From assembly GCA_963796105.1 (NCBI GenBank), contig CAWCKJ010000003.1, positions 640,001 to 704,000 of the forward strand: a stretch of 64,000 nucleotides of DNA, written 5' to 3'. This document shows positions 23,632-57,853 of the stretch, one piece after another. The stretch comes from a candidate division FCPU426 bacterium (GTDB lineage: Bacteria; Oederibacteriota; Muellerivitia; Muellerivitales; Muellerivitaceae). The translations under genes and the position numbers were made by a program. Every line of letters begins with the position of its first letter. Within the stretch, counting starts at the first letter, position 1. The notes under the pieces were generated by a model. It was not told the origin of the DNA. It saw only the letters and a program-made list of their open reading frames with translations, and did no database searches.

Positions 23632-24543
23632 TTATGGTCTTCTGACGTTCCCATTTTTTATTGGGATAACAGTTTGAATTGACATGTTGGTTTTGTGTCC
23701 ATATGCTCCAACACAAGCAACCCCGAAATAATAAATTTTTCCATTTTGCAGAAATCTAATGGTGATTTTTGTTTTTTTAAAAGGTTTTTTAATTTGCCTT
23801 TCGTATTTTATTCCGTCTTTCGAAACAAAAAGTACGTAGCTTTGAGCCTTTGGCATTGGATCCCAAGTTAGATAGGCCTCACTATCACCAGCTTCTATTT
23901 TGAGATTTGTAGGTGGGTCAGGTTGGGGTTCGGGGTTTTTGATCCCCCCGGGTGTTCCTTGAATAATATATTTTTGTTTCTTGCGCCATTTTGCATATTC
24001 TTCACTTTTTGGATCAGGTGGAGCAGCATTAGTTTGAATCCACTTAGGTGTAAGCTCAATAGCCCATTTGGGTGTAACCGATAGTTTTTTGGGAACCACT
24101 GATTGAACTGTCATTCCACTCTTTTGCCCGTCAAAGCCTAGAGAAGCTACAGCATAGTAGTATTTTTTTCCATTCTCCAATTTAACAACATTTGCTTCAT
24201 TAAAAACGTCTGCATTCGAATTTGGAAACTGAAGATTAAAATCCTTTCCATCTTCCGAAACATAAATCAAGTAAGCTCTTGCATTTGGCATTTTATCCCA
24301 AGACAAATGGGCACATTCATCCCCTGGTTCAATCGCGAAATTAGTGGGAGGAGCCGGAACAGTTCCAGGGGTCGGCAAAGCAATTAGTGTTTCTATTGAA
24401 GTGGGATTAGAATTTTGTGTTTGTCCTTGCGTTGGATACACGAATCCGGCTGAAAGAGAAAAACATAAAATTGAGAAAAAACCACGGTAAACCATTTTGC
24501 CTAACCAATTAGTTGAAACTTGGTTTCTATTTTCTTTTTTCAT
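23632..24543 (-). CDS. Secreted protein with two fibronectin type III domains
   Basis: Two repeats: PPTN(F/L)xIExGD...L(S/T)WDxMPxAxxY..(Y/F)VSxDG...L(E/Q)NGKxYY(Y/F)xV; AT-rich. Confidence 0.8.
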   Translation of the reverse strand: MKKENRNQVSTNWLGKMVYRGFFSILCFSLSAGFVYPTQGQTQNSNPTSIETLIALPTPGTVPAPPTNFAIEPGDECAHLSWDKMPNARAYLIYVSEDGKDFNLQFPNSNADVFNEANVVKLENGKKYYYAVASLGFDGQKSGMTVQSVVPKKLSVTPKWAIELTPKWIQTNAAPPDPKSEEYAKWRKKQKYIIQGTPGGIKNPEPQPDPPTNLKIEAGDSEAYLTWDPMPKAQSYVLFVSKDGIKYERQIKKPFKKTKITIRFLQNGKIYYFGVACVGAYGHKTNMSIQTVIPIKNGNVRRP

Positions 24544-24918
24544 GCAAGCCTCCGAAGGTTTCTTGATCTGTCAAGGTTCTCAAATTGCGAAATGGAAGTA
24601 AGGTAAAATTATTATTGTGAAGGAACAAAGCTTTACCAGTTGGTTGGACTGAATAGTTAGATTCAAACGATTTTAGAAATTTCACTTAATATGCCTCCCT
24701 GCTATTGATTGGTGAGTGGAGGGTGTGGATTGAATAACTTTTTGAAAACATCTATTGCTGAAAAGATTGCCTAAAATCGATAGAGGCACTCTAAATCTGG
24801 CGGGTCATCTATTCAACAAAAATGGAGGTAAAATATATTTTGATCTTTAAATGCACCACTGATTGTGTGAAGTGTTTTGACACCCCAAAATTGGAAAACG
24901 AAGATGTAAACAAACAAA

Positions 24919-25958
24919 GGGGTCAGGCCATCATTCATCACTTTACAAATGGTGTGAGTTGTTTACAATGTCCTAATGCCAAGACCTAAACGGATCCATT
25001 ATGAAGGGGCGGTTTACCATGTAACCTCGCGCGGTAATGAACGGCGAAAGATTGTTATGAATGACGCCGACCGCTGGATGTTTATTCGGTTATTGGGGGA
25101 AATGGTTGAAGAGAATGGTGTGTTATGTCACGCTTGGGTGTTGATGGATAATCATTACCATTTGATGCTGGAAACCCCAAGCGCGAATTTATCAGCAGCC
25201 ATGAAACATTTAAACGCCCAATACACACAAAAATTCAATAAAAAGCATTATCGGAACGGGCATTTGTTCCAGGGGCGGTATAAGGCCATTATTGTGGAGA
25301 AAGACAGTTATTTAAAGGAATTAAGCCGGTATGTGGTATTGAATCCGGTAAGGGCCCGGATGGTAAAACACCCCAAAGACTGGAAGTGGAGTAGTTACCG
25401 GGCGACAGCGGGATTTGATAGGGCGGAAAAATGGCTGAAAGTGGACTGGTTATTAGGGCAGTTTGGTAAGGAAAGAAAAAAGGCGCAAAAATCATACAGG
25501 ACTTTTGTGGAAGAGGGGATGGGGAAGAAAGAAAAGCCTTGGGATGATTTGTATTCGCGTATATACCTGGGTGGTAAGGAGTTTTTGGACAAGGTTCACG
25601 AAGTAGGGCAACGTCACAAACATTTGGATGTACCGAAATACCAGAAACACGTGGTAAAGCAAGATCCGAAAGAAGTGTTGGAGAAAGTAGGAAGAATGTA
25701 TGGTGAAAAACCGGAGGAAATATTGAGGGCAGGCAAAAGGGAGTCGGAAGCCCGGGATATGGCGATATATTTATTAAAGAGAAAATCAGGAATGAGTTCC
25801 AAGGCGATAGGAATGAAGATGGGGGTGGGGGAAAGCGCGGTGGGAAACCGATTGATGAAGATCAAAAAAAGGTTGGCGGAAGACGAAAAGTTTGCACAAA
25901 AGCTGATAAAGTGATGAATGATCACTGCCACACGCTGCGGAGCGTGTGGCCTGACCCC
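24919..25958 (+). mobile_element. Y1/HUH transposase element bounded by 27-bp inverted repeats
   Basis: Left GGGGTCAGGCCATCATTCATCACTTTA (24919-24945); right TAAAGTGATGAATGAT[25 nt]GGCCTGACCCC (25907-25958) is its exact reverse complement once 25923-25947 is removed; no TSD seen. Confidence 0.8.
24976..25914 (+). CDS. REP-associated tyrosine transposase-like protein (Y1_Tnp) with C-terminal DnaA-C-like HTH
   Basis: MPRPKR, YHVTSRG, LMDNHYHL (HUH), HLFQGRYK, RYVVLNPVRA (catalytic Tyr), WKWSSY; C-terminal EARDMAIYLLKRKSGMSSKAIG. Confidence 0.9.
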   Translation: MPRPKRIHYEGAVYHVTSRGNERRKIVMNDADRWMFIRLLGEMVEENGVLCHAWVLMDNHYHLMLETPSANLSAAMKHLNAQYTQKFNKKHYRNGHLFQGRYKAIIVEKDSYLKELSRYVVLNPVRARMVKHPKDWKWSSYRATAGFDRAEKWLKVDWLLGQFGKERKKAQKSYRTFVEEGMGKKEKPWDDLYSRIYLGGKEFLDKVHEVGQRHKHLDVPKYQKHVVKQDPKEVLEKVGRMYGEKPEEILRAGKRESEARDMAIYLLKRKSGMSSKAIGMKMGVGESAVGNRLMKIKKRLAEDEKFAQKLIK

Positions 25959-25964
25959 TATGTT

Positions 25965-26478
25965 TTGGAACTCTGGAACTCCTGGAACCGGCCTGGAACC
26001 ACGACACCCGGGAAACTTGGAACTCTGGAACTCCAGGAACTGGCCTGGAACCACGACACCCGGGAAACTTGGAACTCTGGAACTCCTGGAACTGGCTTGG
26101 AACCACGACACCCGGGAAACTTGGAACTCTGGAACTCCTGGAACTGGCTTGGAACCGCGGGAACCCGGGATTCTTGGAACCTTGGAACTGGCTTGGAACC
26201 ACGTAAATCCGGGGTTCTTAGAACCTTGGAACTTTGGAACCGCCTTGGAACCACGGAAATCCGGGGTTCCTGGAACCTTGGAACTTTGGAACCGCCTTGG
26301 AACCACGGAAACTCGGGATTCTTGGAACCTTGTAACTTTGGAACTGGCTTGGAACCATGGAAATCCGTGGTTCTTGGAACCTTGGAACTTTGGAACCGCC
26401 TTGGAACCACGGAAACTCGGGATTCTTGGAACCTTGTAACTTTGGAACTGGCTTGGAACCACGGGAACTCGAGAACTG
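25965..26478. repeat. Tandem array of ~10 x 52 bp units built from TGGAAC hexamers plus a palindrome
   Basis: Unit starts 25965, 26017, 26069, 26121, 26174, 26218, 26270, 26322, 26374, 26426; no unique spacers. Confidence 0.92.
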
Positions 26479-26828
26479 GACGGTAAGCAGGTAAGTCGGT
26501 AAGCCAGGCGGTAAACCTGGCATTGGACGACGGAAACCCGACCGGCCATGCCGGTTGCTGAAACCCCCATGCCGGTAGTTGAAACCCTCATGCCGGTAGC
26601 CCATCCCCGCCATGCCGGTAGGCGACGGACCATGCCAGCAGGGATGCCAGCGCATGCCAACAGGCATTCCGGCCTCTGCCAGCAGGGACCCCGGTCTATG
26701 CCAGCAGGAATACTGGCCATGCCAGCAAGGATTCCGGTGGAACGCGCCCTACAAGTTGGACAGTTGAAGCAAAAAATAGAGAATAGGGAAACGGCTCAAG
26801 GGGTAACCCCCCAAAGGAGCATTTCCAA

Positions 26829-27176
26829 ATGGGTAAAATAAGACGGAAGTTCAGTATTGATTTCAAAGAACAAGTCGTCCACGAGGTAGAAACTGGCCTA
26901 TCGCTCAATGAAGCTGCTCGTCAATACCAGCTCAATCCAAGCGTTATAACCCGTTGGCGCGATAAATATCGCCAAGGAACCTTGGTTGAAAAACCTTCCC
27001 TTCACGAAAAAATATTGGAAAAAGAGAATGAGAAACTCAAAGCCAAGATTGGGGAATTGATCATGGCGATAGACCTTTTAAAAAAATTCCAAAAATACGC
27101 GGAAAACCAGAGAAAGCTCGATACCTCCGTGATCACCTCAAGGAATTTGGCTCAATTTCAAGAGGATGCCAAATGA
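26829..27176 (+). CDS. IS3 transposase OrfA (HTH + leucine zipper)
   Basis: RRKFSIDFKEQVV...AARQYQLNPSVITRW; A7 slippery run at 27080-27086. Confidence 0.9.
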   Translation: MGKIRRKFSIDFKEQVVHEVETGLSLNEAARQYQLNPSVITRWRDKYRQGTLVEKPSLHEKILEKENEKLKAKIGELIMAIDLLKKFQKYAENQRKLDTSVITSRNLAQFQEDAK

Positions 27177-28009
27177 TGGGGCTTCCTCGAAGTACCTATT
27201 ATTCTGCACTTAAAAGTGAACCGGAGATTCAGGAACAAAGAGATTTGGACTTAAAGAACCGAATCGAGCAGGTGAGATTGACCTTCCCCTACTACGGCTA
27301 TCGGAGGCTCTACCACCACTTTTTACGGGAGGGATTAAGGATTAACGCCAAACGGATTCGGCGGGTGGTAAGGAAATACGGTCTTTACCCTATTATTTGG
27401 GGGAAAAGGTTCAAGATCCAAACCACCCAATCCAATCACGACCTGCCGGTGTTCCCCAACCTCTTGGAAAGGGTGGCAGAAACTGCTGTCAATCAAGTGT
27501 GGGTGGCGGATATTACCTATATCCGAATCCTCACTTGCTTTGTTTATCTGGCGGCCATTCTGGATCGTTTTTCCAGAAAGGTGATCGGGTGGGCGGTTTC
27601 CAAGAGACTGGATCGGGAGTTGTCGCTTTCGGCTTTACGCATGGCTTTAGAGGAAAGGAATCCTCTTCCGGGATGCATCCACCATTCAGACAGAGGGGTG
27701 CAATATGCCTGCTGGGATTACGTGGCCCTGCTTGAGTCCAAAGGATTAAGGATCAGCATGTCCAGGACAGGCAACCCTTACGACAATGCAAATGCGGAAT
27801 CCTTTTTCAAAACCTTGAAATATGAGGAGGTGCATCTATTCAATTACGAAACTTATCAGGAAGTGCTTCAAAGACTTCCATACTTCATCGAGGAGGTGTA
27901 TAACAAAAAACGGTTGCATTCTTCTATCGGCTACATGCCGCCTGAGGAGTTCGAGGCTTTAAAGTCACTCAAACCAATCGCCGGAAAACCTATTCTCAAC
28001 TTGGAGTAA
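27173..28009 (+). CDS. IS3 transposase OrfB (DDE integrase core)
   Basis: YGYRR, WVADITYI, HHSDRGVQY, DNANAESFFKTLK, YNKKRLHSSIGY; -1 frame is open from the A7 run, allowing an OrfAB fusion. Confidence 0.93.
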   Translation: MMGLPRSTYYSALKSEPEIQEQRDLDLKNRIEQVRLTFPYYGYRRLYHHFLREGLRINAKRIRRVVRKYGLYPIIWGKRFKIQTTQSNHDLPVFPNLLERVAETAVNQVWVADITYIRILTCFVYLAAILDRFSRKVIGWAVSKRLDRELSLSALRMALEERNPLPGCIHHSDRGVQYACWDYVALLESKGLRISMSRTGNPYDNANAESFFKTLKYEEVHLFNYETYQEVLQRLPYFIEEVYNKKRLHSSIGYMPPEEFEALKSLKPIAGKPILNLE

Positions 28010-28308
28010 AAACTGTCCAAGGTTTGGGGCGCACACCACGGCTTATGCCAGCAGTACCCAGGTTTATGCCAGCAGAAACACCGCCCATGCCAGCAGGGAA
28101 TCCGGCGTCTGCCAGCAGGAAAACCGAACCTGCCAGCAGGTACCCCGGTTTAATTACAGCTGTTTAGTGGATTTATTACATTGCGGCAAAACCAGGATAA
28201 GATTTAGTCCGTTTCTTGGGATTTCTTGGGATCTTGAAGGGAAAATTGCTTTAGTTTTGCTCTACTTGCCCTCGAACCGATTACAATAACTGTCCCTTTT
28301 AAATAAAT

Positions 28309-30828
28309 ATGAATGAAAAGGATCGTGAAATGGGAAACATTCGATACGCCGTTTTGGCCGCCCTGGTCTTTATCCCCGGCATACTCGCGTCAGCGGATAC
28401 CCTTCCTGACCCGGCGGAAAACCGGGTTGAAGCCATCCTGAAAAAAATGACCCTGGAAGAGAAGATCGATTACATCGGGGGATTCAATTCCTTTTATGTC
28501 CGGGCGGTTCCCCGCCTGAAACTGCCCGCCTTGAAGATGTCCGACGGGCCGATCGGGGTTCGCAATTACGGGCCATCCACGGCCTATGCCGCCGGGATCG
28601 CCCTGGCGGCGTCCTGGGACACGGAACTGGCCGGGCGCGTGGGCGGGATGATCGGCCATGAGGCCCGGGCGCGGGGGGTTCATTTCATGCTGGGCCCCGG
28701 CGTGAACATCTACCGCGCCCCCATGTGCGGGCGCAATTTCGAGTACTTCGGCGAGGACCCCTTTCTCGCCTCCCGCATGGTTGTCTCTTACGTGAGGGGA
28801 ATGCAGGAACAGGGCGTGAGCGCCACGGTCAAGCACTTCATGGGAAACAACTCCGAATATGACCGCCATAACACGAGTTCCGATATGGACGAGCGCACGA
28901 TGCGGGAGATCTACCTTCCCACCTTCGAGGCCGCCGTGAAGGAGGCAAAAGTGGGGGCGATCATGGACTCCTACAACCTAGTGAACGGCGTCCACTCCAC
29001 CCAGAACGATTTCCTCAACAACCAGTTGGCCAAGAAGGAATGGGGGTTCGACGGCGTCATCATGTCCGATTGGGACGCGACCTACGACGGGGTGGCCGCG
29101 GCCAACGCAGGCCTGGACTTGGAAATGCCGTCGGGCAAGTTCATGAACCGGGACACGCTGATTCCGGCGGTCAAGGAAGGTAAGGTTTCGGAGGAGACAA
29201 TTAACGACAAAGTGAGGCGGATCCTGCGCACGGCGGTTCGTTTCGGCTGGCTTGACCGCGACCAAACCGACCACGCCTTCCCCCTCTTCAATGAGAAGGG
29301 GCGCAAGCTGGCGCTCGAGACGGCCCAATCCAGCATGGTCCTCCTGAAAAACCAGGGCAATCTACTGCCATTGGACAAAGGGAAAGTCAAAACGCTGGCG
29401 GTGATCGGTCCCGACGCCTACCCTGCAGTGCCGGTGGGCGGGGGAAGCGCGAAGGTCCAGCCTTTCCAGTCGGTGAGCTACTTGGAGGGTTTAAGCCAGT
29501 ACCTTTCCGGAACCGCGGTGGTTTATTACAACCGAGGGCTCATGCCCATGGGCGAGATTTACGATTTGACGGAATTCGCGGCAGACGCCAAGGACGAAGA
29601 ATCGGGTCTCAAGGGAGAATACTTCAACAATGCCGACTTGAGCGGGGATGCAGCCCTCACCCGCAACGACCCCCATGTCAATTTCACTTGGGACCGCCCG
29701 AACAACTGGCCCACCGGCAGTACCGCGCATGATTTCTCGGCCCGCTGGACCGGCTATTACTTCCCTTCCACGGACGGCCCCTACCGCTTCGCTGTTTCCA
29801 CCTATGGCCTGGACGAGTACCGCCTCTATATCAACGGCAAGCTTTTCGAGGACCGCAAAGACCAAAAACAGCCCATTTCGCTGAAGGAGATGGAACTCAA
29901 GGCCGGCAAGGCCTACGCCCTGCGCCTGGAGTATGTCCATCGGGACCACCATGCCAGGCTTAGTTTTGGCATCCGGCGGGCCGACTTGTTCTTCGACCCG
30001 GAGGCGAAGGAGCTGGTGTCGCGCGCGGACGCCGCGGTGGTCCTGGCGGGTTTTGACCCCAACATCGAGGGCGAGGGTTTCGACCGGACGTTCCAACTCC
30101 CCGAGGGCCAGGACGCGCTCATCAACGCGGTCTTGGACGCCAACAAGAACACGGCGGTCGTGATCACATCAGGCGGCGCGGTGGACATGAAAAAGTGGGT
30201 GGACCGGGCGCCGGCGGTGCTGGAAGCCTGGTACGCGGGACAAGAAGGAGGCACGGCTTTGGCCCATATTCTTTTTGGGGACGTCAACCCCTCAGGCAAG
30301 CTTCCCGCGACCTTCGAGCGCAGTTGGGAGGACAGCGCGGTCCACGACAGTTATTACGCTGATTCCAAAAAGCATGTCCGCTATTCCGAAAGCATATTCC
30401 TTGGCTACCGGCATTTCGACAAGGCCGGCGTGAAGCCGCTTTTCCCCTTCGGTTTCGGTCTGTCCTACACCACATTCAAATACGGGGGCCTGTCCATCAC
30501 GCCCGATGCGGCCCAGGGAGACGACCCTGTCACGGTCTCGTTCAACGTGACCAACACGGGCGGGCGCGAGGGGGCGGAGGTTACGGAGCTTTATGTCGGC
30601 GACAGCCACGCGAAAGTGCCGCGCCCCGCGAAGGAACTCAAAGCGTTCGCCAAGGTGGACTTACAACCGGGCGAGACGAAGGGGGTGACTGTGAGCCTTG
30701 ACCGCCGGTCATTTTCCTATTTCGACGAGAAATCTAAGCAATGGAAGGCCGACCCGGGAGCCTTCAATATATTGGTAGGTTCCTCTTCGCGAAATATCGA
30801 GCTGACGGGCAAGCTGGAATTGCGCTGA
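28309..30828 (+). CDS. Secreted GH3 beta-glucosidase with PA14 insertion and Fn3-like C-terminus
   Basis: MSDGPIG, GRNFEYFGEDP, VKHF, IMSDW (nucleophile), LKGEYFNN...FSARWTG (PA14), FPFGFGLSYT, KELKAF. Confidence 0.93.
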   Translation: MNEKDREMGNIRYAVLAALVFIPGILASADTLPDPAENRVEAILKKMTLEEKIDYIGGFNSFYVRAVPRLKLPALKMSDGPIGVRNYGPSTAYAAGIALAASWDTELAGRVGGMIGHEARARGVHFMLGPGVNIYRAPMCGRNFEYFGEDPFLASRMVVSYVRGMQEQGVSATVKHFMGNNSEYDRHNTSSDMDERTMREIYLPTFEAAVKEAKVGAIMDSYNLVNGVHSTQNDFLNNQLAKKEWGFDGVIMSDWDATYDGVAAANAGLDLEMPSGKFMNRDTLIPAVKEGKVSEETINDKVRRILRTAVRFGWLDRDQTDHAFPLFNEKGRKLALETAQSSMVLLKNQGNLLPLDKGKVKTLAVIGPDAYPAVPVGGGSAKVQPFQSVSYLEGLSQYLSGTAVVYYNRGLMPMGEIYDLTEFAADAKDEESGLKGEYFNNADLSGDAALTRNDPHVNFTWDRPNNWPTGSTAHDFSARWTGYYFPSTDGPYRFAVSTYGLDEYRLYINGKLFEDRKDQKQPISLKEMELKAGKAYALRLEYVHRDHHARLSFGIRRADLFFDPEAKELVSRADAAVVLAGFDPNIEGEGFDRTFQLPEGQDALINAVLDANKNTAVVITSGGAVDMKKWVDRAPAVLEAWYAGQEGGTALAHILFGDVNPSGKLPATFERSWEDSAVHDSYYADSKKHVRYSESIFLGYRHFDKAGVKPLFPFGFGLSYTTFKYGGLSITPDAAQGDDPVTVSFNVTNTGGREGAEVTELYVGDSHAKVPRPAKELKAFAKVDLQPGETKGVTVSLDRRSFSYFDEKSKQWKADPGAFNILVGSSSRNIELTGKLELR

Positions 30829-37158: not shown

Positions 37159-40100
37159 TTGAAAAGACCGGGCCTTCTCATTTCCAATTTCATCTCTCAT
37201 GATTTTTCACTTTTTTCTTTTTTAAATCCAATCAAACGCCGTTATAGGTTCGCAGTCCTCGGAATTTTTTTAATTGTTCTTCCGGGGAAAGACGCCTATG
37301 CCCTGTTGGATACGCTATATGTCACAGGGAACCAGCTTGCCACCTCCCCTTCAAACGGTTGTACGCTTACACTTAAAGGCGTTGACGTGGATGGGTTGGA
37401 ATTCTCCCCCTATGGTTATGGGCCCGGCGGTAGCAGTTCCAATTGCGGCGGCTTTACCGGAAACAGCACCAACGGCTGCGGTGGAAATACCCTGGCGGCG
37501 GCCCAGGAAGCGGTCACGGCCTGGCATGCCACAGTCATCCGCCTTCCATTGAACCAGGATTTCTGGTTCGGTTGTTCCAATTCGATCACCCAGATCGCGG
37601 CCACCCAATACCAGTCGGCGGTATCCGCCATCGTCGGATACTGCGCCTCCAACAACTGTTATGTCATCCTGGACCTCCATTGGTCAGGCACCTATAGCGG
37701 CACTTCACCCACAACACCCTGTAGCGGATCGGGCTGGGGTACCGCCACGGGACAAGAAGCAATGGCGGATGCCAACGCTATCACCTTTTGGGGTTCCGTA
37801 GCCAGTATGACCTGGACCAAAAACAATCCAGCGGTCATGTTCGACCTGTACAACGAACCCACCAATATTCCCGCCGCGGCATGGGTTACCGGCGGAAGTA
37901 CAGGCGGAACCGATACCCCCTCCTGGACACCCGGAATGCAGGGACTGTTGAACGCGGTGCGCGGCGTAGGCGCCAATAATATTTGCTTGTTGGGCGGCTT
38001 GTCCTGGTGTTCAAACCTGAAAAGCGTCCTCAGCGCCCCAGGGCCAGTCACCAATAACGGTAATGGCGTCGTCTACTCAGCGCACTTTTACGGGTCCAAC
38101 GACGGAACCACACCCACAAGTTGGAACGCGGATGTGCCATCAAGTCTCTTGTCCACTGCCCCAGTTTTCGTCGGAGAATTCGGCGGTCCCACGACTTGTG
38201 GAACAGATCCTGATAATCCCACTTTCGACTCAAATATGATCGGCACTTCAGGATGGGCCGTCACAACCAATGGTGTTGTGGGAGCCACCGCCTGGTCATT
38301 TACCGATGATTCCTGCCCTAACATGCTTTCGAATTGGACTTGGACCGCCAACGCATGGGGTGCCGCCGTATCTACCTGGCTGGCGACGCCAATCCCCACT
38401 TGTCCTCCCATCACCCCCGGGCCGACTCTTACTCCGACTTTGTCTCATACCCCAACCCAAGTTGTCACGCCCACCTTTACCAATTCCTCAACCCGGACTC
38501 CCACTCCTTCTTCAACAAACACAAACTCTCCAACCGCATCAAGCACACAAACGCGCACGCCCACAAATACATCCACCAATACGGTGACCAATACCTTAAC
38601 TAATACATTAACCAGCACGCCCACCCTTACCGTGACGCACACAAATACACCCACTAACACATCCACTCCCACGCCAACCGCTTCCCCAACAGTCACCAGG
38701 ACCTACACACAAACCAACACCCTTACGAACACTTATACCAGCACCCCATCCCCGACTTTGACCCGCACGAATACCTCCACTAGCACCGTCACCAACACGG
38801 CGACCTTTACCTCAACTGCGACCAGAACAAACACGTCCACCAATACGGTCACGGCCACTCTGACGAACACTTCCACCAGCACCGCCACGAATACAGCGAC
38901 ATCCACTTCTAGTCCGACCAGGACAAATACCGCCAGCTACACCCCGACGCCTACTCCGACCGCAACTCGGACGAATACTTTGACCAACACAGCGACTGCC
39001 ACCTTGACGAATACCACGTCCAACACCGCCACCAATACGACAACACCCACTTTAACATCGACAAGGACCAATACACCGACAAACACTTCCACCAGCACCC
39101 CAACTTCAACGCCCAGCAATACCGCCACGAATACACCCACCAACTCGACAACAGCAACCTCGACTCGGACAACCACGCCTACGTCCACTAATACCGCTAC
39201 TTCCACCTCAACTTCGACTCCGACCAGCACCTATACGAGCACAGTCACCAACACGAGAACCAACACTTCCACCAATACAGCCACAGCGACGAATACGCCG
39301 ACAGTGACCCCCACCGCGACCAATACCAACACGGGGACCGCTTCCCCCACTAATACGCCTACGATCACGCCAACCAGGACCTCAACCTCCACCCCGACGA
39401 ATACCTCCACCGCTACTCCCACGCAAACGGCTACAAACACCCCCACCATTACGGCGACTGCCACGCCGACCAGAACCGCTACGCCGACCTCCACGAATAC
39501 TTCAACCTCCACAGCGACTTCGACTCCGACCAGCACCTTTACGACCACCGCGACAAGCACGAAGACCACCACGCCCACCAATACCCCAACGGCGGCAAAC
39601 ACGAATACCCCGACTGTGACACCCACAGCGACCAACACCAACACGGGAACCACATCCCCCACGAATACCCCAACGATTACCTCGACTAGGACTCCAACGC
39701 CCACACTGACAAATACTTCATCTTCCACTTCGACTCCGACTGTAACGAACACAACCACCAACACTTCAACGGCCACTACGACGCGGACGCCAACCCCTTC
39801 ATCCACGAACACCCCAACCCACACGCCTACATCCACCCAGACAAATACCTCAACCGCTACGCCGACTCCGACGCCTTCTTACACGTCCACCAGTACTTCC
39901 ACATACACGAAGACCACTACGCCCACCAATACCATGACGGCAACGAATACAAATACCCCAACGGTGACGCCCACTGCCACCACAACCAACACCGGGACCC
40001 AGCCGCCCACGAACACGCCGACCAATACCTCCGCCTTCACGAACACAGCAACTCATACCTTGACTACAACACCGACGAATACTTCAACTTCCACTCCGAC

Positions 40101-41484
40101 AGCGACGAACACATCAACGTCTTCGATGACGCCTACTGCGACCCGCACCGCTACCACGACGGTCACGAACACGATGACCGTTACGGCTTCGCCAACCCCG
40201 ACACCAACGGTGGCGAACACGTCCACCAACACACCAACGGCTACCCCAACCAGGACTGCGACTCCCACCTCTACCTATACTTCCACCTCGACCAATACTT
40301 TGACCGCTACTCTGACTTTAACACCCAGCTATACATCCACGAGTACGTCTACTTCGACGAGAACTGCCACACCTACATTTACCCCTACGGCGACTTTCAC
40401 CTCGACTATGACCCCTACAAATACATTCACGAGTACAGGCACTGCGACGAACACGAATACGCCGACTGTGACACCTACCACCACCAATACCAACACAGGG
40501 ACCCAGTCACCCACTAATACGCCGACTATAACGCCCAGCTTCACGAACACTCCAACGCAGACCCCGACACCCACAGCGACGGCTTCGATGACGTCTTCGC
40601 CAACTCCAACGGCGACAGACACATTCACCAACACCCCAACGTCCACCCCGACTGAGACGCCGACTTCTACCTTTACTTTCACGCTCACGAACACATTGAC
40701 GAATACCTCTACCTTCACACCGACGGCCACTTATACATGGACGAATACGCCGTCAAACACGCCCACTCCGACCGCAACTTATACTCCAACGAATACCAAT
40801 ACCGGGATCCAGTCACCCACCAACACACCGACGGCGACATTCACACCCACCCATACTCCGACTAATACGTCCACCTCGACGATGACGAATACGCAGACAC
40901 CCACCAACACCTTTACAAACACCTCCACCCCTACCTTTACCAGCACCAAGACGGCTTCGACTACAGCGACTCCTGCGTCATCGCCTACGCTCACCGCTTC
41001 GCCTTCCCCTACGGTCACGAACACGATGACCGTTACGCCAACTCCGACTGTCACCCGCACGCTGACCCCAAGCTTCACTTCGACGCCGACGGGGACATTC
41101 ACTTATACAGAGACTCCAACAAGCACTGCCACTTTCACGGCGACATTCACCGTGTCTTACACTCCAACGACCACCTTGACACAGACATCCACACCGGTAG
41201 GCAAGAATGGGGTGTTTATTTATCCGAATCCTGTGAGTGGTACTGAGCCTGTGACAATCCAGGTGACCCTGACGCGAACCGAGCCGTTGGTACGGATCGG
41301 GATATACACGTTGTCCTTCAGGAAGGTGAATGAGGTTGACCGGACCCAAGTGCCGGCAGGAGTCAGCGAGATAGCAGTCCCCCTGACGGACAAGGCCGGC
41401 AAACCTCTCGCGAATGGGATCTACTACGTAGTGTTCCAGGCGCCCCAGGGGCGCCTTGTCGCCAAATTGCTTATCTTGAGATGA
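37159..41484 (+). CDS. GH5 glycoside hydrolase + ~930-aa Thr-rich stalk + T9SS-type-A-like C-terminal domain
   Basis: [22 protein letters not shown] (acid/base), YSAHFY, VGEFG (nucleophile); TxTxT linker ~38410-41200; IYPNP...LANGIYYV...KLLILR. Confidence 0.88.
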
Positions 41485-56896: not shown

Positions 56897-57853
56897 TTAG
56901 AAATACGCATCAATTGCAAAATGATGGTTGGCGCCTAAAATACCGTCATTCGTCCAAGCGTAATCCAGGCCGACGTAATTTTTCATAAATGGAATTTTAA
57001 CCCCAGCCCCAAGATATAATCCGGCGACTGCGCCAAGGCCGACATCATTTTGGTCAATGGAGCCTTGGAATATGTAACCAAAGCGACCCACCAAGGTGTC
57101 TTTATACCAATACTCTCCACCTAAATTAGCGGAAATAGCATTATCATTTGGAAAGTTCATGTCATAAGCCACAGTAAAATTATTCTCAAACATCTTATAA
57201 GCAACACCAACCTTAACATTAAAAGGCAAAGGATCTGCTTGTTGGTCGAACTTCATGGTTGGCGCGATATTCTGAATATTAAAACCCGCCGTTAAACTTT
57301 TAACAGGAGTTCTATATAAAAGGCCTAGATCAACCGCAAAAGTTGTTGCTGTTTTCAAAGAGACAAGTTGTTCCGAAATGTACTTGGCAGTTAAGCCAAT
57401 ATCCACGTTATAACTGACCCTATAGGCCCCAGCGATATCAACATCCATGTAATTTTCACCGACGCTTTGTCCTGTGGGGTTTCCATTCTGATCATACGCA
57501 CTATCGGTACCTGTTTGAAGAACTTTTGCCCCAATACCAAAAGCAGCGTCATTTCCTAATTTAGTTCCTACATTAACAACACCATAACGAATGGTATCGA
57601 TGAAAACGTCATATTCAGCGGTAATATGGGCTCCACCTAATTGATTCAGCCCAGCAGGATTCCAATAAATAGCATTCGCATCATCCGCCACCGCCACAAA
57701 AGCCTGACCCATGGCAATTGCTCTGGGACCCTCTGGAATTTTGAGGGCTACCGCGCCTGTAGTTCCGGTTCCGCCTGAAAAAAGATTTTGGAGCCCTAAT
57801 AAACATAAATAAAACACTGAAAAAACAAAGATTTTAAAATATTGATGTTTCAC
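56897..57853 (-). CDS. PorV/PorQ (UPF0164)-family outer-membrane beta-barrel
   Basis: LKIPEGPRAIAMGQAFVAVADDANAIYWNPAGL N-terminal signature; amphipathic strands; terminal Phe. Confidence 0.85.
   Translation of the reverse strand: MKHQYFKIFVFSVFYLCLLGLQNLFSGGTGTTGAVALKIPEGPRAIAMGQAFVAVADDANAIYWNPAGLNQLGGAHITAEYDVFIDTIRYGVVNVGTKLGNDAAFGIGAKVLQTGTDSAYDQNGNPTGQSVGENYMDVDIAGAYRVSYNVDIGLTAKYISEQLVSLKTATTFAVDLGLLYRTPVKSLTAGFNIQNIAPTMKFDQQADPLPFNVKVGVAYKMFENNFTVAYDMNFPNDNAISANLGGEYWYKDTLVGRFGYIFQGSIDQNDVGLGAVAGLYLGAGVKIPFMKNYVGLDYAWTNDGILGANHHFAIDAYF

Follow-up and report, generated by a model that had tools for sequence, protein, structure and literature searches.

A phased direct-repeat array in a candidate division FCPU426 bacterium and its candidate partner, a predicted membrane-anchored ParB/Noc-fold protein family without the CTPase domain

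We analyzed a phased array of 14 short cores in a 64,000-nucleotide stretch (hereafter, the window) of a candidate division FCPU426 genome. The array probably consists of sites that resemble parS half-sites, lie on one face of the DNA, and serve a predicted membrane-anchored ParB/Noc-fold protein lacking the CTPase domain; this assessment includes the mechanism proposed below. Four observations led to this reading: the geometry of the repeats, the fold match of a shared protein domain, the linkage of the corresponding genes to arrays, and the co-variation of array cores with the recognition helix. From these, we infer binding, membrane location, and function of the ParB-like proteins. No gene of this family was found in the 64-kb window, so the array copy there is an orphan, and we are somewhat inclined to doubt that it is active today. 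Below, G000 denotes the genome holding the window, G001 a genome of the same genus, and C-numbers the contigs of G000.

Geometry and sequence of the array

The array occupies positions 26546-28152 in two arms separated by an IS3-family element (Table 1). Fourteen fixed cores had been claimed, and all 14 were recovered, starting at 26549, 26570, 26591, 26613, 26633, 26655, 26677, 26699, and 26720 in the left arm and at 28046, 28067, 28088, 28110, and 28131 in the right arm. Once 26738-28041 was excised in silico, the spacings given in the preliminary description (21, 21, 22, 20, 22, 22, 22, 21, 22, 21, 21, 22, and 21) were reproduced exactly, with a mean period of 21.38 bp. Eleven of the cores are identical to TGCCGGTAG or TGCCAGCAG, and the other three are one base off. 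Read on the minus strand, four units carry CTACCGGCA and ten carry CTGCTGGCA, which is the polarity of the gene-linked arrays described below; the core is nearly palindromic (a loose dyad), so the polarity of the array is not certain. In the IS-excised window, the longest phased chain contained 14 cores, compared with 1 in 200 of 200 dinucleotide shuffles, a post hoc comparison in that the pattern was derived from the array itself.

Table 1. Features of the repeat field and its surroundings (window positions, except for the element copies on other contigs of G000)
Feature	Position	Strand	Details
Predicted secreted 303-aa protein	23632..24543	-	Field points at its start, 352 bp away without the TIRtron
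TIRtron-type element	24913..25964	+	Y1 transposase with DnaA-C-like HTH (24976-25914); inverted ends containing GGGGTCAGGCC
TIRtron copies in G000	C3:193610, C4:1337841, C4:1409137, C6:76932, C11:133326, C12:332367		
52-bp tandem array	25965..26468	.	About 9.8 copies; GGAAC subunits
Short intervening modules	26482..26545	.	GGTAAG units and one GGAAACC unit; recur in other G000 fields
Array, left arm (9 units)	26546..26737	-	Four TGCCGGTAG-type and five TGCCAGCAG-type cores on the plus strand
IS3-family element	26738..28038	+	TG..CA ends; OrfA 26829-27176, OrfB 27173-28009
Array, right arm (5 units)	28042..28152	-	TGCCAGCAG units, in register with the left arm without the IS
GH3 beta-glucosidase gene	28309..30828	+	Conserved right flank of the variable island; bystander

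The insertion carries the features of the IS3 family, namely TG..CA ends, OrfA and OrfB (matching Pfam HTH_Tnp_1 and rve), and a 3-bp target duplication, with CGG at both 26735-26737 and 28039-28041. The array had been described as older than the element, and this holds: the register is kept across the insertion, CGG stands on both sides, and the 10 IS3 copies in G000 all sit in different flanks. At 26545-26582, one low-depth contig of run X2 jumps back by 38 bases, which may reflect a variant of the array in copy number or from another locus.

The ~12-nt segments between cores had been taken for variable spacers. These tails do differ from unit to unit, but the last ten share a consensus, GGATTCCGGC, with columns 30-90% identical; they are diverged copies of one sequence rather than independent or acquired spacers, so the label "repeat-spacer" overstates the case. 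The view that this is not a CRISPR was borne out, as the tails are homologous and only ~12 bp long and no cas family occurs among the window ORFs. Two CRISPR-like arrays exist elsewhere in the genome (G000:C16:43514-45739 and C2:363775-366962), built of other repeats and unrelated to the fields. Units of the array are head-to-tail direct repeats with a 9-11-bp core, not the 16-bp palindromes of parS.

Direct repeats of 22 bp look like iterons, and without its IS the array has several stop-free frames, as a decayed heptad-coding repeat would. Both explanations, iterons of a replication origin and a decayed coding repeat, are largely refuted and scarcely credible. Of the 51 window ORFs scanned, none matched a cas, rep, or par family, and about 47 such fields exist in this one genome, which speaks against an origin. 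Open frames occur on both strands, and the ORFs overlapping the array had no Pfam match. As had been argued, the mixed 21/22 spacing breaks the reading frame, and strict 22/21 alternation elsewhere in G000 would break any frame. A strict 21-bp coding version was looked for in relatives and not found, the site being absent from G001. Mixed 21/22 spacing recurs at many G000 loci and at least four loci in G001, which argues against assembly indels.

The compound field around the array

The array is the right-hand part of a longer compound field that abuts a Y1 transposase element, a context missed in the preliminary description. This TIRtron (24913-25964) combines Y1_Tnp with a DnaA-C-like HTH and has GGGGTCAG inverted ends, and the field starts immediately after its right end. 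It fits the TIRtron/TIRYT elements of subclass 2.1 Y1 transposases, as far as these are described in the available text of PMC3733652 and PMC6006769. With about eight G000 copies at 98% protein identity, the element appears recently mobile; no target duplication was evident. Counting all types, 12 full TIRtrons are present, and four of them terminate no more than 30 bp from a repeat field, while fields make up 0.8% of the genome. The TIRtron as maker of the arrays was considered and dropped as the main explanation, eight of the 12 full copies not lying beside a field.

The 52-bp module of this field also occurs directly in front of a ParB-like paralog described below (G000:C2:369072). On the other side of the TIRtron, the gene for the predicted secreted protein is a candidate target of the array. 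In G001, a different gene stands between hemL and the GH3 gene, and the field is missing there, so the locus is a variable island. The remaining window ORFs encode housekeeping or carbohydrate functions, and a promoter and terminator scan of the window gave no excess over shuffles. The window also contains a PorV-like gene (type IX secretion; 56900-57853), and the genome is rich in Thr-Pro stalk proteins, such as that at 37159-41484.

Repeat fields across the genome

To place the array in its genome, we scanned G000 for recurrence after removing multi-copy IS elements. The scan gave 55 tracts (30 kb), which were merged into 47 fields, with two AT-rich tracts of another kind dropped; the array is a module in one of these ~47 compound fields. 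Elsewhere in G000, its unit occurs as near-perfect 43-bp (22+21) tandem repeats, with strict 22/21 alternation over 29 cores on contig C4 and 36 on C7. Fields are patchworks of at least a dozen modules with periods near 21.5, 42-43, and 51-53 bp. With polarity set from the gene-linked arrays, modules are co-oriented in 14 of 16 fields, and module order is partly common to fields (88 of 110 pair orders follow the majority, a count without a control).

Among 31 genomes of the bacterial family, the three-core pattern was found in two, G000 and G001, and the G001 copies also form compound fields. When orthologous sites in G001 were sought for six other fields, one field proved conserved in place, one site was empty, and four lacked synteny on both flanks. 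The conserved one is an orphan field whose cores and order of modules are unchanged in G001, while its tails and copy numbers differ. A very young array, with 37 copies of a 22-bp unit at 99% identity (L430; G000:C12:89596-90415), corresponds to an empty orthologous intergenic region in G001.

Insertion sequences accumulate in the fields, which hold 5 of 10 IS3 copies and 7 of 13 and 5 of 5 copies of two other elements (17 of 28 together), and only 1 of 89 copies of five other IS families. The labels other than IS3 were presumed from the ORFs; the two other elements we take to be IS21-like. This pile-up and the absence from G001 of the window site and of another, young array are as expected of dispensable DNA. 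The co-orientation of modules and the one field conserved in place are signs that orphan fields are not mere debris. Of 39 orphan fields with a polarity, 28 are directed toward the start of a gene (crude ORF calls; three fields without polarity left out), which may only be local strand bias, as the upstream gene is co-directional in 26 of 39.

Loose pattern scans of genome, metagenome, and viral contigs returned at least 247 loci, seven of which had mixed 21/22 spacing; among the matches listed, none matched the ParB-like profile. Mixed 21/22-spaced arrays with a similar core were seen in a Saccharibacteria MAG, Thermoanaerobaculia MAGs, and metagenome contigs (L163, L155, L185, L257, and L299), and their fetched flanks gave no match to that profile.

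A ParB/Noc-like protein family beside the fields

Beside the 47 fields of G000, we found five intact paralogs of one protein family starting 37-244 bp after a field, as well as one truncated paralog, fragments, and one full-length ParB-like gene. We call paralogs that start at the DNA-binding domain and lack the CTPase domain (ParB_N) DBD-first; all those found in G000 start next to a field. About 40 of the 47 fields are orphans, that is, without a DBD-first gene.

The DBD-first proteins share an N-terminal domain of ~140 residues (mean identity 42%) that has no Pfam or NCBIfam name. Its AlphaFold model, built from six sequences, had a pLDDT of 83, and the top Foldseek matches were the DNA-binding domains of ParB, Noc, Spo0J, and SopB (probability 0.97-1.00, TM ~0.5, E 0.05-0.5), with no match at E 0.001. 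A sequence search with the domain profile alone retrieved no ParB structure. At the sequence level, the full-length paralog matches Noc (E 7e-4), and full-length relatives carry Pfam ParB_N and TIGR00180, while the Noc model scored far below its cut-off even for them. Atlas matches fell below 0.9 and serve as leads only (HTH_ParB clusters, 0.83; PDZ, 0.89).

Simple hydropathy marked a hydrophobic 19-residue segment after the domain in 33 of 36 DBD-first proteins. A DNA-binding domain and a transmembrane segment in one chain are the hallmark of transmembrane regulators, and these proteins have both by prediction. Most of the longer ones have a common C-terminal region with a weak PDZ lead.

Profile matches occurred in 15 of 41 related genomes, up to 19 per genome, and as 240 representatives in the 50% library. 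At E 1e-20, they were confined to this bacterial family (9 of 99 genomes of the phylum), and profile search of viral contigs found no relative. The nearest ORF on each side of 36 genes revealed no recurrent neighbor and no recognizable parA, with 16 downstream flanks too short.

Two further kinds of relative were observed. The full-length ParB-like paralog of G000 (250 aa; L036:4454-5203, G000:C4:1322953) has a CTP-binding motif that looks degenerate in the alignment with Noc. In G002, G006, G013, G016, G019, G021, G022, and G023 (L085-L136), 43 orphan proteins combine ParB_N with the DNA-binding domain and have no arrays; many of this class have predicted membrane helices or repeated DNA-binding domains, at ten or more copies per genome.

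Association of arrays with DBD-first genes

We searched 650 bp upstream of each gene for 8-mers recurring with at most one mismatch at helical spacings in chains of at least five cores. The set comprised 85 distinct ORFs from 106 matches (some matches being repeated domains of one gene), several weak matches in G014, G013, G002, and G022 having been left out. A phased array was found upstream of 37 of 39 DBD-first genes in 10 genomes, and of 32 of 34 when G000 was set aside because its genes had seeded the profile. Arrays also preceded 1 of 43 paralogs that keep ParB_N (G000:C4:1322953, the only one), 2 of 3 fragments, and 8 of 300 random G000 genes; since the genomes are kin, these counts are not independent draws. 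In one array-less exception (L081), the start is shortened and the gene immediately upstream encodes a transposase.

The distance from array to start codon is 20-250 bp, and the polarity of the arrays is fixed relative to the gene. Cores differ from gene to gene: up to eight array-linked paralogs occur per genome, each with its own core, and the same individuality holds for each DBD-first gene in six other genera-level genomes. In two arrays, L414:1000-1500 (G043) and L033 (G000:C4:723883-724284), GTGACA-type cores alternate with GGCA-type cores, a pattern that suggests one leader read by two paralogs. In 8 of 35 genes, the array closely follows a sigma-70-like promoter, and two arrays lie ahead of one, again without a control.

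The fixed polarity, and the promoter-like sites that would place those eight arrays in the transcript, would also suit repeats that act as RNA, either as protein-bound 5'-leader repeats or cut into ~21-nt units. We regard this explanation as very unlikely. Periods of gene-linked arrays and fields (21.5, 33, 43, and 52-53 bp) are in step with the helical turn of double-stranded DNA, and the partner is predicted to carry a DNA-reading helix-turn-helix. On the array itself, Rfam gave nothing at gathering level, sub-threshold snoRNA noise appearing outside it only, and the tails are homologous, not acquired.

Co-variation of cores with the recognition helix

On the gene strand, cores such as GGTAAACA, GGGAACA, and GGTGACA resemble the parS half-site GTGAAACA, whose outer base is read by residue R173 of the ParB recognition helix, as described in the part of PMC7383237 that was available. 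We compared helices and cores across 31 single-site arrays, with motifs aligned blind to the proteins; four arrays with 43-bp multi-site units and the array-less gene were left out. Eight recognition-helix residues were aligned by eye to ParB 172-179. An earlier form of the comparison, an unbiased single-column scan with crude motif windows, gave no significant residue (best family-wise p 0.15) and an overall Mantel p of 0.0004.

With the rest of the domain removed, helix similarity predicted the five 3' positions of the core (partial r 0.22, permutation p 0.0002) and not the six 5' positions (r -0.04), a split that was picked after motif inspection and tested with permutations that leave some kinship in. 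The best five of 101 domain windows all overlap the helix-turn-helix, and the co-varying 3' end of the core is where R173 of ParB reads its site. GGCA cores accompany a DSQIT-type helix in 5 of 6 cases and other helices in 0 of 25, this class also having been chosen after the motifs were inspected. In a tree built without the recognition helix, resolution was poor and automatic core labels were partly out of register, so that convergence is neither shown nor excluded; in one sister pair with good support (L113/L114), the two members have different helices and different cores. Given the physical linkage of array and N-terminal helix, recombination could move both together. Co-variation at the level of sequence is therefore support for a code, not proof of one.

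These results also bear on the idea that the fields consist of tandem DNA, selfish or neutral, that has spread through slippage, gene conversion, or the neighboring TIRtron transposase, with ParB-like genes that merely co-travel and bind nothing. The many orphan fields (about 40 of 47) would fit this idea, as would the 4 of 12 full TIRtrons ending within 30 bp of fields that cover 0.8% of the genome, the gain and loss of fields between two species of one genus, and the partly common module order (88 of 110 pair orders, uncontrolled). However, we consider it unlikely, because DBD-first genes each come with a different core of their own in six other genera-level genomes, cores track the recognition helix, and full-length paralogs of the same genomes have an array in only 1 of 43 cases. 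In addition, 8 of 12 TIRtrons are not beside a field, and TIRYT elements are described, in the available text of PMC3733652 and PMC6006769, with inverted ends and hairpin repeats rather than such arrays.

Proposed reading of the array and its mechanism

If cores follow the helix, the binder of the window array can be predicted. The core CTACCGGCA occurs, with at most one mismatch, 13 times on the gene strand upstream of a G022 gene with helix KDSHITTL (L040); G000:C4:724386 is preceded by 8 occurrences, and a G001 gene with a DSQIT helix by 7. The predicted binder is a paralog with a DSQIT-type helix, which in G000 would be its single DSQIT paralog, G000:C4:1196536 (helix SDSQITDL). Speaking against this assignment, the array upstream of that gene has only three near matches to CTGCTGGCA and fewer than three to CTACCGGCA.

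The preliminary description had offered three readings: iterons, parS-like sites on one DNA face, or a miniature repeat-spacer RNA array. Same-face, parS-like sites are indirectly supported by the fold, the gene linkage, and the co-variation. The iteron reading lacks support, given the ~47 fields and no rep gene among the window ORFs, and so does the RNA-array reading, given the homologous tails and an Rfam signal that is sub-threshold noise outside the array.

We propose that a monomeric helix-turn-helix domain would read one ~10-bp half-site-like core. A 21.5-bp period corresponds to two helical turns and would place all cores on one face of the DNA, so that a row of membrane-embedded proteins could hold the DNA along the membrane. 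At its own gene, an array would most likely repress transcription of that gene and tether the locus to the membrane, as is suggested by the position of arrays before the start codon, some just behind a sigma-70-like promoter. Copy number may change by slippage, and recombination may shuffle modules between fields, producing stacked, co-oriented fields like the one at 25965-28152. The orphan copy in the window might be read in trans or be a leftover.

A broader version is possible but rather doubtful, in which the system performs multi-address docking of DNA to the membrane: ParB-derived readers, each with its own code, would grip stacked, phased arrays at dozens of chromosomal loci, with several paralogs at once holding and regulating a field and perhaps a response to signals through their outer domains.

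Comparison with known systems

The closest parallels are ParB-parS and Noc-NBS. The DNA-binding fold is alike, the cores resemble the half-sites GTGAAACA and GGGAAATA, and specificity appears to change through the recognition helix, as in the part of PMC7383237 that was available. That source describes 16-bp palindromes, whereas the arrays here are direct half-site repeats at two-turn spacing. Array-linked proteins also differ from ParB and Noc in lacking the CTPase domain, and most have a predicted membrane helix and an outer domain. Noc has a CTP-gated amphipathic N-terminal helix and palindromic NBS; here, the hydrophobic segment comes after the DNA-binding domain. Without a 16-bp palindrome, and with array-linked paralogs that lack ParB_N, the system falls outside ParABS on these features.

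F-plasmid sopC consists of 12 repeats of 43 bp, and the arrays here resemble it in being 43-bp-period tandem arrays that precede or adjoin the gene encoding a ParB-fold binder; each sopC unit has a 16-bp inverted repeat, and the units work with SopA on the plasmid (PMC3177203, available text). The arrays here, in contrast, are chromosomal, many, and mostly direct half-sites, with no parA partner seen.

These parallels raise the alternative that the same protein-DNA pairing has a physical role, with the arrays as centromere-like membrane anchors for chromosome loci or integrated elements in segregation or nucleoid organization. Such a role would agree with the ParB/Noc fold, with 43-bp periods as in sopC (PMC3177203, in part), with fields dispersed over the genome and some conserved in place, and with the precedent of Noc, a membrane-associated ParB relative (PMC8429893, in the text available). 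We judge it distinctly unlikely: the nearest ORFs of 36 genes included no recurrent neighbor or recognizable parA, the missing CTPase domain leaves no sliding clamp of the known type, arrays stand operator-like in the leader of the protein's own gene, and viral contigs had no profile matches.

Under the preferred reading, that of half-site-like sites for a membrane-anchored reader, two further comparisons are informative. ParT of the Streptomyces plasmid SCP2 likewise has a ParB-like DNA-binding domain without a CTPase domain; in the part of PMC12260392 that was available, it appears as a soluble clamp, loaded at a single 18-bp inverted repeat and acting together with a ParA, and that text describes no membrane helix or phased array. 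Regulators of the ToxR/CadC type share the layout of cytoplasmic DNA-binding domain, membrane helix, and outer domain (here a PDZ-like lead), and the main text of a survey of transmembrane regulators does not use the words ParB and KorB (PMC10269533).

To our knowledge, transmembrane transcription regulators are not characterized by long phased operator arrays that carry a paralog-specific code. Among mobile and repeat elements, REP and TIR repeats are hairpins with a GTAG/CGTC tag or GGGGWSAS inverted ends, and the array units carry neither. The TIRtron/TIRYT papers, in the text available, describe no phased tandem fields (PMC3733652 and PMC6006769). A survey from 2025 looked for ParB-fold proteins through their CTPase domain, and the word "transmembrane" does not occur in its accessible text (10.1101/2025.10.10.680097).

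Significance of the array family

What is new here is a candidate partner for the array family, an undescribed ParB/Noc-fold domain without the CTPase domain. A published description of such a pairing of ParB-like family and array was not found in the literature searched, which covered few subscription papers and no supplements, and neither were CTP-independent, membrane-anchored ParB readers of direct-repeat arrays. The value lies mostly in the gene-array family, more than in the single orphan copy in the window, and the ParB-like pairing is a candidate explanation for the repeat family as a whole.

The 37 gene-array pairs amount to a natural table in which recognition helices can be set beside DNA sites. 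This table makes the diversification of ParB/Noc specificity directly testable, over many more than the two known states, and the pairs could supply orthogonal protein-site pairs for DNA labeling. If our reading is right, the ParB DNA-binding domain has been re-used in these bacteria as a set of membrane-anchored, CTP-independent readers of direct-repeat arrays.
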